From Octopus sinensis (taxonomy: Eukaryota): a DNA stretch of 64,000 nucleotides. Under the pieces are notes generated by a model. It made no database searches, was not told the DNA's origin, and saw nothing but the letters and a program-made list of their open reading frames with translations. A program made the position numbers and the translations under genes. This document shows positions 9,170 through 62,770 of this stretch, piece after piece. The stretch lies in NCBI RefSeq assembly GCF_006345805.1, contig NC_043012.1, positions 53,196,001-53,260,000 of the forward strand, in the 5' to 3' direction. Numbering within the stretch: the first letter of the stretch is position 1; every line of letters starts with the position of its first letter.

Positions 9170-9352
9170 AGGAGGAGAATTCACAAAAATGCAAAAGACG
9201 AAGACAGGTGGTGTAGATAACAAGCAGCTGTATTAGTATAACGCTCGGGAAATGTAAAAGTCTTTAAACGTTTCAAGCCTTCGTTCTTCCACAGAAAGGA
9301 ACACAGAAGAAAACAAGGAGAGAAAATACAGAATGTGTAGCGGCTAGCGATA
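9170..9352 (-). mobile_element. Short microsatellite-flanked element with degenerate hammerhead-like motif (9265-9294)
   Basis: Minus strand CTGTGGAA-GAAC-gaag-GCTT-GAAACGTTTA. Bounded by (TA)n and (CA)n. Confidence 0.45.
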
Positions 9353-9515
9353 CACACACACACATACATGCATACATACATACATACGTACGTACATACA
9401 TACATACATACATACATACATACATACATACATACATACATACATACATACATACATACGTACATACATGCATGCATATATAGACATAACATATATATAT
9501 ACACATATAAGGTTA

Positions 9516-9750
9516 TAAGGCGGCGAGCTGGCAGAAACGGTAGCACGCCGGGCGAAATGCGTAGCCGTATTTCGTTTGCTGTTACGTTCTGAGTTCAAAT
9601 TCTGCCGAGGTCGACTTTGCCTTTCATCCTTTCGGGGTCGATAAATGAAATACCAGTTACGCACTGGGGTCGATGGAATCGACTTAATCGCTTTGTCTGT
9701 CCTTGTTTGTCCCCTCTGTGTTTAGCCCCTTGTGGGTAGTAAAGAAATAT
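9516..9750 (+). mobile_element. SINE family B, full monomer
   Basis: aaggcggcgagctggcagaaacggtagc (A-box-like) ... gagttcaaattc (B box) ... gcctttcatcctttcggggtcgataaa ... ccccttgtgggtagtaaagaaata. Confidence 0.9.
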
Positions 9751-10837
9751 ATATATATACACATATTGTATCCATCCGCCAAATTCACTCAGAAGAAATT
9801 GGTCTGCCAAGGGGTTTATACTAGAAGGCCCTTACTCAGGGGTGCTCGCATTCAGTTTGAAACCAGAACCGCGTGGTTCCAAAGTGAGCTTTTTAACCAG
9901 CCAGCCATGCCTGCACCTAAAAGTTATTTGCGTGTATTTGCAAGTATGTGTCTGAGGGTATGTGTGTGCGTGTGTCTGTGCCTCTGCGTGTGTCTGTGCC
10001 TCTGCGTGTTTGTATGTGTACGAGTGTGTCTGTGCGGGTGTGCTTACGTCTGTGTGTGTCTGTGTTTGTGAGTTTGTGTGTGTGTGTGTGTGTCTGAGGG
10101 CGCGTATGTGTCTGTGTATGTGTGTGTGTATATGTCAGTGTGCCCGTGAGCTTGTGTGTGGGTGTCTGTGTGTCTGAGCGTGCATGTGTATATATGTGTG
10201 TATGTGTGTATGTATGTATGTGAGTGCGTGTGCGTGTGTGTATGCGTGTCTGTGTGAGACTATATGCGTGTACATGTGTATTTGAGTGTGTGTGCATGTA
10301 TGTTTGTATCTTAACTTCGGGAAATAATTATGTAGGTTAGATCACACCAATCCGAAATGGAACTCAGCCAGATCGAAATCAAAATTCTTCACTTGTAAAA
10401 ATTTCCATTTTCTAACCGTCGGCATTTTCGCCAAAGTTATTTGAAAAACAAGACTACTCCTTTGATTCTTGTATGCAATTAGTTCTTTCTCTGATATCAA
10501 AACAGAGCAGAATATATCTTATTTCCCGAAACGCCGAAACCAATCGTTAGATGTTAAATGTTAATCGAGAGATGTTCTATCAAAGCAATCATATTATATA
10601 TCTTGATTATGATTAAGGAAGGCCTGAAGGGAAAAAAACAGATATTAACTACGTGTCATTTTAGATTCGAAATTTAAATGTTGTTCTCAGTTCCAGGCGT
10701 TATATTTTGACTGAAAATATTTTGATAATAAAGAACAAAAGTATACAAAGGCGACATAAGTTCGCCATGAAAATGTCTAAAAATACATTTGTGTATTTTA
10801 GTTTGCATACACTTTCAAATATATTCCTCTTGCGCAT

Positions 10838-11040
10838 GTTATTGTTGTTGTTGTTGCTGTTGTTGTTGTTGTTCTTGTTCTTCTTGTTCTTCTTCTTCTT
10901 CTCCTTTTTCTTCTTCATCTTTTTATTCTTCTTCTCCTCCTCCTCCTTCTTCTTCTCCTTTTTCTTCTTCTTCTCCTCCTCCTTCTTCTTCTTCTTCTTC
11001 TTCTTCTTCTTATTATTATTATTATTATTATTATTATTAC
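10838..11040. repeat. Compound trinucleotide microsatellite (TTG)(TTC/TCC)(TTA)
   Basis: Directly visible. Confidence 0.95.
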
Positions 11041-11796
11041 TAGTGTGCTCGTACCGTCAGAAATGACGGCATGAAAATGATACGGAAAATAAAAGTGAAA
11101 TAAAAAATATTCCAGCCGTTATCTCAGTAATTGCTTCATCACCACGTTTCTAACGAAAACCCTACCAGCAATAAGTTCGCCTTGATTTGGATGGTCCATT
11201 TCAGTATTAATTAATTCCTCCATTCTTCTCATCGATATTCTCTCTCTCTCTCTCTCTCTCTCTCTCGTTTTCTCTCTGTGCTGCTTCCTCTCCCGTTTCA
11301 TCTTGTTGCCTTTGTGATGCTCTCATTCTTAGATAGTCTCTCCTTACTGCTACTTGCTCTTCTATTTCATCTTGGCGCTTTTGTACTGCTCTCTCGCTCC
11401 CTTTGAATACCTCTCCTTTGTGCAATTAGGTGCCTTTTCATTTTGACGTCTTCGAGCCTGTCTCCTTGTGTCTTGCTCTCGTCCTTCTAGTCTCATTTCG
11501 TGTGATTGATTTAATAACTTTAATATACTGTTCAATCTTCTTGCGTTCAGTTCTTCCTGAGTGACACTGGCTGTTCTTCGCCTTGGTCTCTCTCTCTAGC
11601 TAACTGTCGCCTTCTGTCTGATTAATTCTCCAAAGCAGGTGGATGGGTATATTTAATACAACGGAACACAAACTTCAGAACAAATAAATGTATTTGTGTG
11701 TGCGTGTATGTGTGTGTGTATGTGTAAACGTTAGTTTTTTTTATATTTCTATACGTAAGTATACTAGCTCAAAAATTACACAGGATTACATTAACG

Positions 11797-12241
11797 GGAT
11801 CTTTTCGGTTTGAACGGCAGTTTTTTAAAAATAATTTCCACGTAACTAAACACTTTTAAACTTCGTATACTGGTAGAATGTGTTTATAAAACATCTTTTT
11901 CTCTTGGCTTTATTGAGAAAATTCTATAGTTTGTAAGATATTTGTTGTTTGTTTTTCTTCAATTTCTGCAATTTCAATCAATCAAAGACGTCTATTGAGG
12001 TGAAAACATTCTGTGCCGTATGAAAAATTCCCTCGTTTAAGAAACAGATTGGGTTTATTTACATTTCTGAAGAAAAAAAGATACCCTTCCCCCACCCCTA
12101 CCCCTAAACCTAACTAACCCTAACTCTAACCCTAACCCTAAAATAGATTGAAATGCAATAGATCGATACTAGGATCATAATTATGGGTGACAATTTCATA
12201 TGACACCGCAAGAAAAAACTGCCGTTCAAACCAAAAGATCC
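11797..12241. mobile_element. MITE with GGATC TIRs, 8-bp TSD and internal (CCCTAA)-like repeats, copy 1 (Merlin-like)
   Basis: TIR ggatcttttcggtttgaacggcagttttt / aaaaactgccgttcaaaccaaaagatcc. TSD cattaacg (11789-11796) / ctttaacg (12242-12249). Telomeric repeats at about 12095-12142. Confidence 0.9.
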
Positions 12242-60515: not shown

Positions 60516-60657
60516 TTTAAATTTATTTGTCAAAATATTTTCGTCGCTTTGAGACCGCGACGTGTTCACTGACAAAACTTCGTGCTGCATCTATATATAT
60601 ACATATATATATATATATATATATATATATATATATATATATATATATATATATATA

Positions 60658-61040
60658 TAGGCGCAGGAGTGGCTGTGTGGTAAGTAGCTTGCTTACCAAC
60701 CACATGCTTCCAGGTTCAGTCCCACTGCAGTTCGCACCTTGGGCAAGTGTCTTCTACTATAGCTTCGCGCCGACCAAAACTTTGTGAGTGGATTTGGTAG
60801 ACGGAAACAAAAAGAAGCCCGTCGTATAAATGTATATATAGTGTGTGTGTGTATGTTTGTGTGTCTGTGTTTGTGCCCCTAGCATTGCTTGACAACCGAT
60901 GCTGGTATGTTTATGTCATTGTAACTTAGCGGCTCGGCAAAAGAGACCGATAGAATATGTACTAGGCTTACAAAGAATAAGTCCCGGGGTCGATTTGCTC
61001 GACTAGAGGCGGTGCTCCAGCATAGCCGCAGTCAAATGAC
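60658..61040 (+). mobile_element. SINE family A, full length
   Basis: aggcgcaggagtggctgtgtggtaagtagc...gactgaaacaagtaacagagtaa. Confidence 0.92.
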
Positions 61041-61747
61041 TGAAACAAGTAACAGAGTAAAGGACTATACGTATGTATGTATGTATGTATGTAATTATAT
61101 ATATATATATACATATATATATATGTGTGTGGGGGTGTGTATATTTATGTATGTATTATATTTAGATATATCCATATATATAAATGCACATACACACACA
61201 CACACACACATATATATATATATATATATATATATATATATATATATATATATCTGTATATACATATATATGTGTGTGTGTATACATATTCATACATGGC
61301 CACAAAGTGTTCTTCACACATATATAAACATATTCTCTTGTACTGTTTGCATTTTGCGAAGTGTAAAATTAATTTTCCTTTCTTCTACTACCACGAAGTC
61401 GGCATCCAGTCGATTGTTTTTACATTAATCCCACGCCTCATTTCGTTAATGGTGTCACCATGATATTATTTACATATACATATACTAGAAGACAATATTT
61501 AACAGCTTCATTATATTTATGCTAAGGAATATTAGAGAAGAAAATATCTAACTTTTTTCTTTTAGCTGGTGCTTAGTTACATGCATCTGCCGTCATCTTC
61601 TCTAAGTTTAAATGCACCAAAGATATTTCTACATAAAACCAAATAAGACAAAAAAAAATAATACATTTTTACGTCATTGCAGTAAATTGTATATGTAAGA
61701 GATTATGAACGCTTTCACTGAGGCTTTAATAGATATATATTCAATGC

Positions 61748-62106
61748 TTAGTACGCCGGACGAAATGCTTAGCGGTATTTCGTCTGCCGCTACGTTCTGA
61801 GTTCAAATTCCGCCGAGGTCGAATTTGCCTTTCATCCTTTCGGGGTCGATAAATTAAGTACCAGTTAAGCTCTGGGGTCGATATAATCGACTTAATCCCT
61901 CTGTCGGTCCTTGTTTGTCTCCTCTGTGTTTAGCCCCTTGTGGGTAGTAAAGAAATAGGTATTTCGTCTGCCGTTACTTTCTGAGTTCAAATTCCGCTGA
62001 GGTCGGCTTTGCCTTTCATTCCTTCGGGGTCGATAAATTAAGTACCAGTTACGCACTGGGGTCGATGTAATCGAATTAATCCGTGTGTCTGTCCTTGTTT
62101 GTCCCC
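61748..62106 (+). mobile_element. SINE family B head-to-tail dimer
   Basis: Junction aaagaaataggtatttcgtctgccg at about 61950-61973. Confidence 0.88.
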
Positions 62107-62119
62107 ATATACAAATATA

Positions 62120-62770
62120 TGCGTGGTTGTGTGGTAAGAAGTTTGCTTCCCACCCACGTGGATGCAGGTTCAGTCCAACAGTGTGCCAGCTTGAACAAAT
62201 GTCCACGAAGCACCCAAAAGTTTGTGAGTGGATTTGGTAGACGGAAATTGAAAGAAGGCCATCGTATATATATATATTATATATATATATATATATATAA
62301 ACACCATATATATATATATATATATGTATATATAATATGTGTGTGTGTGGCAAATGAAAGACGGAAGATGGAATAAACGAGAATTGTTTCGATACATCTA
62401 GCATCAATCCCTCACCGGTTGGACACTCAAGAACTTGTTCAGGAGAATCCGGGTGATATATATATATATATATATATATATATTATATATATATATATAT
62501 ATATATATAATATATATATATATATAATATATATATATATATACATATATATATACACACATATATATATATATATATATATATATATTATATATATATA
62601 TATATACATATCAATGTGTGTGACACTGTGTCTTTGTGTTTGTGTTTGTCGCCTACTGCCGATTGACAACCGTAGTGTGTTTACATCCCGTAAAGTAGCG
62701 GTTCGGCAAAAGAGACCGATATAATAAGTATCAGGTTTAACAAAAAAATAAGTACTGGGATTGATTCATT
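62120..62770 (+). mobile_element. Diverged family A SINE whose internal microsatellite holds a ~105-bp insert (62350-62457) with a hammerhead-like motif
   Basis: SINE halves at 62120-62265 and 62615-62770. Insert, minus strand 62381-62416: GGTGAGGGATT-GATGC-tagat-GTATC-GAAACAATTC. Confidence 0.7.

Follow-up and report, generated by a model that had tools for sequence, protein, structure and literature searches.

The subject of this analysis is a 64,000-bp stretch of the Octopus sinensis genome (hereafter the window; contig NC_043012.1, positions 53196001-53260000, in the 2.72-Gb assembly GCF_006345805.1), which is 36% G+C and microsatellite-rich, and in particular a set of short inserts in or beside its TA microsatellites that we relate to the 3' ends of Penelope-like retroelements (PLEs) and to their hammerhead ribozymes. 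A first-pass annotation of the same DNA had singled out eight sites in six inserts sharing a TG-containing core, a hairpin, GAAA and a palindrome. The coordinates and strands of all eight proved correct when the window was re-read, and one quoted detail had to be amended: stem II of the copy at 50073-50107(-) reads GAACT, not GAACC. We label the families after these inserts as F1 (9265), F2 (31921 and 32342), F3 (50073 and 50584), F4 (58492), F5 (60532) and F6 (62381). The features, with their probable assignments, are:

9168..9351, minus strand: F1, ending on (TA)n, putative 5'-truncated 3' end of a Neptune/Nematis-type PLE; copies elsewhere in the genome, the longer ones with an upstream endonuclease with a CX4CxxC linker (Pfam GIY-YIG E 3e-4, below the cut-off)
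9262..9298, minus strand: F1 candidate minimal hammerhead, with the palindrome ACGU and a core, CUGUGGA, that has A6U and retains C3-G8; cleavage predicted 3' of 9267
31863..32152, minus strand: F2 copy 1, putative 3' end of a Penelope/Poseidon-type PLE; genome copies, with a GIY-YIG-like frame, recognised by eye, upstream in L015 and L029
31916..31963, minus strand: candidate hammerhead of F2 copy 1; family core canonical CUGA(U/A)GA, with decay of the window copy affecting position 3 (A) and stem I
32284..32573, minus strand: F2 copy 2, with candidate hammerhead at 32337-32384; genome copies
50001..50408, minus strand: F3, inverted 5'-truncated copy, with candidate hammerhead at 50066-50114 (U3-A8 core, G10.1-U11.1); genome copies
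50408..50720, plus strand: F3, direct copy with an optional tail, ending on (TA)n; putative 3' end of a young PLE of Neptune/Nematis type, for which other loci in the genome hold intact 781-residue frames
50577..50625, plus strand: F3 candidate hammerhead, core UUGAUAA (U3-A8), stem II GGUUC/GAACC, palindrome ACAUGU, predicted cut 3' of 50617
58439..58591, minus strand: F4, putative 3' end of a PLE with an F3-like endonuclease; candidate hammerhead at 58488-58524, core UUGAAAA (U3-A8), palindrome ACCGGU
60516..60591, minus strand: F5, putative internal piece of the 3' untranslated region (UTR) of a Neptune/Nematis-type PLE, from the family alignment and upstream frames
60525..60577, minus strand: F5 candidate hammerhead, core GUGAACA (G3-C8), palindrome AAUAUU, stem I of 7 bp, cleavage predicted 3' of 60533
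62340..62452, minus strand: F6, putative 3' end of a Hydra-type PLE; hammerhead-like fold at 62376-62421, core degenerate family-wide
7021..7232, no single strand: inverted pair of putative 3' ends of a seventh PLE family, overlooked in the first-pass annotation; candidate U3-A8 hammerheads at 7161-7202(+) and 7051-7092(-), palindrome AGCGCU

In F1, F2, F4 and F6 the copies present in the window show decay of their own: in that of F1 stem II has decayed and 1 nt is inserted, that of F4 has a broken stem I that is intact in the family, and that of F6 has neither stem I nor the 3' half of stem III. The two F2 copies sit in a 421-bp tandem duplication (31790-32660), and a tRNA-like stretch can be made out by eye upstream of the hammerhead in the F2 3' UTR, at 31950-32150(-). 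The motif of the family at 7021..7232 is also found downstream of GIY-YIG frames in four other loci (L202, L228, L229 and L234), and this inverted pair forms the perfect hairpin behind spurious microRNA matches in Rfam. Reverse transcriptase (RT) fragments of long interspersed nuclear elements, which we take to be RTE-like, adjoin the F4 and F5 stubs at 58511-59398 and 59728-60267 (+).

The shared pattern in the window and in the genome

The pattern was scanned in a loose form (TG, a hairpin of at least 4 bp, GAAA and a palindrome) and in a strict form with 5 Watson-Crick pairs, against a null of 20 block-wise dinucleotide shuffles of the window. The loose form gave 33 matches versus 15.35 +/- 3.3 in the shuffles, none of the 20 reaching 33, and the strict form 8 versus 1.25, so that the motif is more frequent here than in shuffled AT-rich sequence. 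The hairpin-GAAA-palindrome pattern is enriched but not diagnostic alone, as about half of the loose matches are chance. Seven of the eight sites were recovered by the loose scan, and that at 9265 was missed because its stem II has decayed. A comparison with the Rfam hammerhead models, proposed in the first-pass annotation, came out negative: none appears among the best 150 of the 303 Rfam matches in the window (153 weaker ones lie outside these), and the hammerhead families gave 0 matches at gathering score in 10 loci. Strings of the form CTGANGA...GAAA at 4014(+), 6551(+), 27461(-) and 43396(-) showed no complete fold by eye.

The inserts are not single-copy. Genome searches returned 2456 first-look candidates for F1, 5488 for F2, 1701 for F3, 869 for F4, 1206 for F5 and 733 for F6, figures that are not copy numbers, and the family alignments show conservation of stem II, GAAA and the palindrome. 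These alignments bear directly on the view that the sites are chance pattern matches in AT-rich DNA, for which one may cite the roughly 15 of 33 loose matches expected anyway and the lack of an Rfam hammerhead match. Conservation across whole families, closure of stem I, pairing of positions 3 and 8 and a consistent place downstream of PLE frames all speak against it; we regard it as exceedingly improbable overall and as refuted for F1-F5 by the family data, and the descent of F6 from a hammerhead is the only part of this question that keeps some doubt.

Cores of the families

For each family the genome was searched with the insert, 30 loci were fetched and the copies aligned, the window copies being left out of the core counts, which are given as tallied by script with the by-eye reading in brackets, since some regular-expression tallies misparsed rows. 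The majority cores are: 1) CTGTGGA in F1, in 23 (26) of 29 copies; 2) the canonical CTGA(T/A/G)GA in F2, in 18 (19) of 28; 3) TTGATAA in F3, in 28 of 28; 4) TTGAAAA in F4, in 26 (29) of 29; and 5) GTGAACA in F5, in 29 of 29. The earlier statement that none of the motifs has an intact CUGANGA thus holds for the window copies but not for F2, which is canonical at the family level. F2, F3, F4 and F5 carry CUGANGA or a variant paired at 3:8; F1, with U at position 6, and F6 carry neither, and we class both as hammerhead-like variants rather than canonical hammerheads. GAAA followed by a palindromic stem III and an N-U-H triplet is present in all six family majorities.

Two families were also anchored outside the core. 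A pattern on the F5 flank found 395 exact matches in the genome, its reversed control 0, and in the flank-anchored sample, some rows of which are inverted pairs of one insertion, GTGAACA was read in 24 of 30 rows by eye and in 19 of the 20 parsed by script, C3-G8 occurring in none. When F1 was queried via its endonuclease region, 11 motifs could be parsed from 30 loci and all 11 had T (U) at position 6; in seven aligned rows of this lineage positions 7 and 17 vary, and 17 is never G.

The 35 aligned copies of F6 read CCC(A/G)(T/A)GAGG(G/A)ATC in the core region. In the register that takes the T/A as position 7, C3, G8 and A9 are kept and U4 and G5 are replaced by C, and no register restores U4 and G5 in these copies. 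Most F6 copies still have stem II, GAAA, a GUC triplet and the palindrome ACAATTGT. F6 is the only family of the six to lack U4 and G5 family-wide, and is probably a non-cutting relic.

Coding frames upstream of the inserts

In all six families longer copies extend upstream into a PLE endonuclease frame, which answers the proposal to look next to the same termini for RT/GIY-YIG Penelope reading frames. F3 has a CX4CxxC linker and encodes both RT (Pfam RVT_1 E 1.2e-6, just under the cut-off) and GIY-YIG (Pfam E 9e-7, over it), with 781-residue open frames in 5 of 5 loci chosen for that length and the hammerhead 873-977 nt past the stop. F5 shows a CX3CxxC linker, RT motifs and, in a 511-residue frame, GIY-YIG at the Pfam cut-off, followed by a microsatellite-rich UTR of ~1.1 kb before the hammerhead. 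F1 has a CX4CxxC linker and GIY-YIG scoring below the Pfam cut-off, and the F3-like endonuclease of F4 likewise falls below it. The F2 frame, recognised by eye, is GIY-YIG-like, of Penelope/Poseidon type and without the zinc-finger linker; its 75-residue piece had no Pfam match. F6 displays a CxCX5C linker (CSCREKSKC in L184) in a frame recognised by eye, with a BLASTP E of 2e-18 to another Hydra-type frame; only broken frames occur among its best 150 scored matches, the longest open stretch being 346 residues. A single frame that combines RT with GIY-YIG at the C-terminus is thus intact in F3 and traceable by motifs in F5, and F1, F2, F4 and F6 offer only broken or partial frames with weak or no Pfam score. 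The clade labels follow the linker motifs of PMC8557442 rather than an RT tree and leave Neptune and Nematis together; by these motifs F6, with its CxCX5C linker and (TA)n insertion, has the marks of the Hydra clade. A second, nearly complete Hydra-type frame lies at L354:4062-6099 (+), and no hammerhead was found inside its 3' flank.

The copies have fixed 3' ends and variable 5' ends, often with inverted partners and optional tails. The first-pass annotation took the inserts for unrelated non-autonomous elements; each is instead the 3' end of a coding PLE family, and the F3 frames are intact. A related view, that they form a guild of independent, non-autonomous, retrozyme-like elements borrowing a PLE protein, draws on several facts. 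The copies in the window are short and non-coding (tblastn with 9 PLE proteins found no match in the window), F2 stands in a 421-bp tandem, 46 of 65 F5 matches start within 10 nt of one point, in part because the query began there, and retrozymes have been proposed as derivatives of PLE terminal repeats (10.64898/2026.07.22.740005). Non-coding tandem units each bearing a hammerhead, as in retrozymes, were however not found: longer copies of every family reach a coding frame, F5 doing so via its microsatellite-rich 3' UTR to its endonuclease, and the one local tandem, that of F2, looks like a local duplication, as it is 99% identical and includes host microsatellite. We hold such a guild to be very unlikely.

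Two narrower candidates were rejected. A Naiad origin was considered since Naiads target (TA)n and have no canonical hammerheads, but in every one of the six families the 3' UTR is immediately preceded by the endonuclease. F5 was also considered as a non-autonomous unit of 207 nt whose 5' end is fixed at a site resembling a splice acceptor, and this was abandoned when a pattern search showed that the family continues upstream to the endonuclease. Many F5 copies (the L141 unit and L320-L349) begin near a branch-point/polypyrimidine/AG-like sequence ~20 nt upstream of stem I; this common start may correspond to the end of an intron, like that of Drosophila virilis Penelope, or to copies being cut short at the neighbouring microsatellite.

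Insertion into microsatellites

A dinucleotide repeat, counting CA and TG repeats as well, follows the 3' end in 23 of 29 copies of F1 (background 0.08), 27 of 28 of F3 (0.10), 28 of 29 of F4 (0.13) and 19 of 29 of F6 (0.11), and in 11 of 29 copies of F5 (0.21) and 4 of 28 of F2 (0.15); some of the queries held terminal TA bases. The proposed targeting of TA therefore holds for F1, F3, F4 and F6 when widened to dinucleotide microsatellites, but not for F2.

Stems and folding

The architecture of stem II, GAAA and palindrome described in the first-pass annotation stands; stem I had been overlooked and was found on natural copies, where it closes with 4 bp in F1, 5 bp in F2, 3 bp in F4 and 7 bp in F5, is longer in F3 with U-U and A-U-rich mismatches, and has 3 bp in one register of F6. 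Within a single copy stem III amounts to 0-1 bp, and each palindrome can self-duplex at a predicted -0.2 to -8.3 kcal/mol. In an alignment of seven rows of the F1 lineage 97% of the cells are paired, and at one stem I pair C-G is exchanged for G-C.

The 3:8 pair in further families

More families were gathered from flanks downstream of other GIY-YIG frames and by core-free clustering of hairpin-GAAA-palindrome contexts in 1.57 Mb. One is canonical (L226, L227, L232), and several are U3-A8 (L224; L203; L204; L202/L228/L229/L234; L021). F7, which lies outside the window (L208:1980-2185, L295-L319, L358), is a young PLE with an A3-U8 pair, a 2-bp stem II, a 6-bp stem I, an ACCGGU palindrome and an endonuclease over the Pfam cut-off; 31 of the family's 33 rows carry its core ATGAATA, a count in which overlapping loci figure twice and from which one of 34 printed rows, an unrelated F2 coding fragment, was dropped. 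F9 (L250, L259 and 13 other loci of one cluster), a relative of F1 that ends on (TA)n, has the core CCGACGA (U4C) in most copies. The L021 family (L021:370-560, L419-L448) is high-copy, with an F5-like stem II and U3-A8, and is often inverted just upstream of the motif. A further repeat that occurs as inverted pairs (L245, L273, L038) has a stem II of A+T only and what could be a CTGCCGA (A6C) core, and is an ambiguous hammerhead candidate.

At 3:8 each of the four Watson-Crick pairs is represented, namely the canonical C3-G8, U3-A8 (as in F3 and F4), G3-C8 (F5) and A3-U8 (F7). With F6 left out, the pair is Watson-Crick in 13 of 13 families with an assignable core (C-G 4, U-A 7, G-C 1, A-U 1). 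A descriptor left free at positions 3, 6, 7 and 8 was run on 60 evenly spaced stretches (599,900 bases) and gave 17 matches, of which 12 are paired at 3:8, 4 of them belonging to one unverified family, against 2, 4, 2, 4, 3 and 4 paired matches in six shuffles; unpaired matches numbered 5 against 3-10 in the shuffles. No family majority has G at position 17.

The G8C change lowers the cleavage rate 100,000-fold, a loss that C3G makes good in part, and cleavage occurs after a base that is not G (PMC8495972). This bears on a view that accepts the inserts as PLE 3' ends and holds that the fold is kept as an RT-bound structure or for dimerisation, cutting being dispensable in all families. F6 did amplify although its family majority has no U4 and G5, F1 did so with A6U and F9 with U4C; hammerhead mutants left insertion in vitro unaffected (PMC11167929), and the Naiad and Chlamys PLEs flourish with no canonical hammerhead (PMC8557442). 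Double changes that keep the 3:8 pair nonetheless recur in four forms, and 3:8 pairing together with a base other than G at 17 is what catalysis requires (PMC8495972), not what a plain hairpin requires. We judge a purely structural role throughout to be unlikely.

Interpretation

It is likely, as judged from sequence comparison, that the inserts represent six PLE families by their 5'-truncated 3' ends and that their fold is the minimal type I hammerhead of these elements, with F2-F5 likely self-cleaving as dimers, F1 likely doing so only weakly and F6 probably non-catalytic. The original suggestion of minimal type I hammerheads that are related to Penelope and have a palindrome as stem III is borne out. 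The accompanying proposal, that the motifs have decayed or are retained for a purpose besides cleavage, suits F6 and perhaps F1 but not F2, which is canonical, nor F3-F5, whose compensatory 3:8 pairs are of kinds that keep or partly rescue activity (PMC3088659, PMC11167929, PMC8495972). By analogy with known PLE biology, the GIY-YIG endonuclease would nick AT-rich or (TA)n DNA and the RT would copy the RNA from near its 3' end and mostly stop early, so that short hammerhead-bearing stubs would pile up in microsatellites. In tandem transcripts two hammerheads may pair via the palindrome, build stem III and cut after position 17, probably helped by the protein of the element. The odd cores of F3, F4 and F5 would then be compensatory changes of the 3:8 pair, on which the active fold depends.

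Several points weigh against this reading. The top matches of each family were ranked by likeness to the window copy, for which reason F1 and F5 were re-anchored outside the core. Minimum-energy folds are unlike the hammerhead fold in all six motifs folded (F1-F5 and F7), and dimer prediction shows a clean palindrome duplex for F4 only; folding hence gives partial support only. Covariation within families is weak, as 65 of 500 shuffles reach the score of the F1 lineage alignment, which is not significant. The 13 families are related to one another, so that the permutation value for 3:8 pairing is 2e-5 if they are treated as independent and 1 in 24 when they are collapsed to four states; only 2 of 12 branches of the endonuclease tree are supported, which leaves independent 3:8 changes uncountable from it, two of the 13 families stand on 1-3 copies, and no endonuclease motif or coding link was found for the L021 family in 30 loci. 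From the literature, PLE minimal hammerheads cut poorly in vitro (PMC4209133), changes at A6 give low activity, A6C being slow (PMC3088659), and in the anole PLE insertion in vitro did not depend on cleavage, and RNA-seq reads with ends at the cut site were absent (PMC11167929).

More speculatively, the genome may be read as a natural mutagenesis series of the PLE hammerhead, with four 3:8 pairs, A6U, U4C and a Hydra-type family that multiplied after losing U4 and G5 with stem II, GAAA and palindrome kept, in which the fold has a second, non-catalytic job (RT docking or RNA dimerisation) that outlives cleavage; we think this possible, if rather doubtful. PLE hammerheads cut poorly, and one in vitro study found cleavage needless for insertion; natural families with canonical, compensated, weakened and apparently dead cores, of which one (F3) has intact frames, are ready material for testing what these motifs do. 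Searches with CUGANGA fixed undercount PLE hammerheads and would find one of the six families here.

Other features of the window

A tRNA-like Rfam match at 18196-18287 (+), with 42.1 bits against a gathering score of 29, is probably the head of a short interspersed nuclear element (SINE). An abundant SINE-like repeat occurs in tandem (184-bp) and dispersed copies at 15538-16079 and in many other places, and degenerate internal TTAGGG arrays lie at 36400-36480 and 41040-41300.

Comparison with known systems

The closest precedent is the description of metazoan PLE hammerheads by Cervera and De la Pena (2014; PMC4209133), which includes U3-A8 pairs, one additional base separating 9 from 10.1, a stem III that is palindromic, and weak cleavage as dimers, and whose Figure S3 lists UUGAUAA and UUGAAAA cores from Schistosoma. 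Our families share with these the type I form, the short stem I, the extra 9/10.1 base, mostly G10.1-C11.1, the palindromic stem III, the location in terminal repeats, the predominance of solo truncated copies, the inverted pairs and the cores of F3 and F4. U3-A8 in PLE hammerheads is thus published and the phenomenon has been in print since 2014. G3-C8 (F5), A3-U8 (F7), A6U (F1), U4C (F9) and the F6 core differ in that they were not met in the examined text and Figure S3 rows of that paper, and its descriptor would miss such variants because its core boxes were fixed. Natural PLE hammerheads with G3-C8, A3-U8 or A6U were not found in the literature covered, which excludes the survey of Lunse, Weinberg and Breaker (RNA Biol 14:1499) and most subscription papers; the same literature held no report of such variants for octopus, hammerhead and Penelope together, which does not establish their absence from print. 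An engineered G3-C8 variant is mentioned in PMC3884650.

Among PLE clades, F1, F3, F4 and F5 share with the Neptune/Nematis elements (PMC8557442) the C-terminal GIY-YIG, a CX2-5CxxC linker and the microsatellite bias, and differ in their core variants. The Hydra-clade PLEs, including Hydra-1_Obim (Craig et al. 2021, PMC8557442), show a (TA)n bias and a CxCX5C linker, and F6 resembles them in this linker, in having no endonuclease cysteine pair, in (TA)n insertion and in a stem III of ACNN..NNGU type near the 3' end. Canonical hammerheads are described there as universal in this clade, Hydra-1_Obim being listed with one, whereas F6 has neither U4 nor G5. The animal non-LTR (long terminal repeat) retrozymes (10.64898/2026.07.22.740005), proposed to derive from PLE terminal repeats, have the same type I hammerhead, weak stem III and PLE link but are non-coding tandem units, as opposed to the truncated ends of coding elements seen here.

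The Poseidon element of Anolis, PAc (PMC11167929), has a canonical minimal hammerhead and no TA-repeat targeting, like F2, and an optional 3' tail, like F3, F4 and F5. Its cleavage is protein-assisted, and C3G/G8C partly rescues it, so that the G3-C8 pair, an engineered rescue mutant there, is in F5 the natural state of a family. Natural core variants were likewise described by Perreault et al. (2011, PMC3088659), who report U3-A8 as active in vitro, and their U3-A8 covariation, change at A6 (A6C) and U4C in a viroid are shared with our families; those are rare single examples, mostly from phages and bacteria, whereas here such cores are fixed in high-copy families of animal retroelements.

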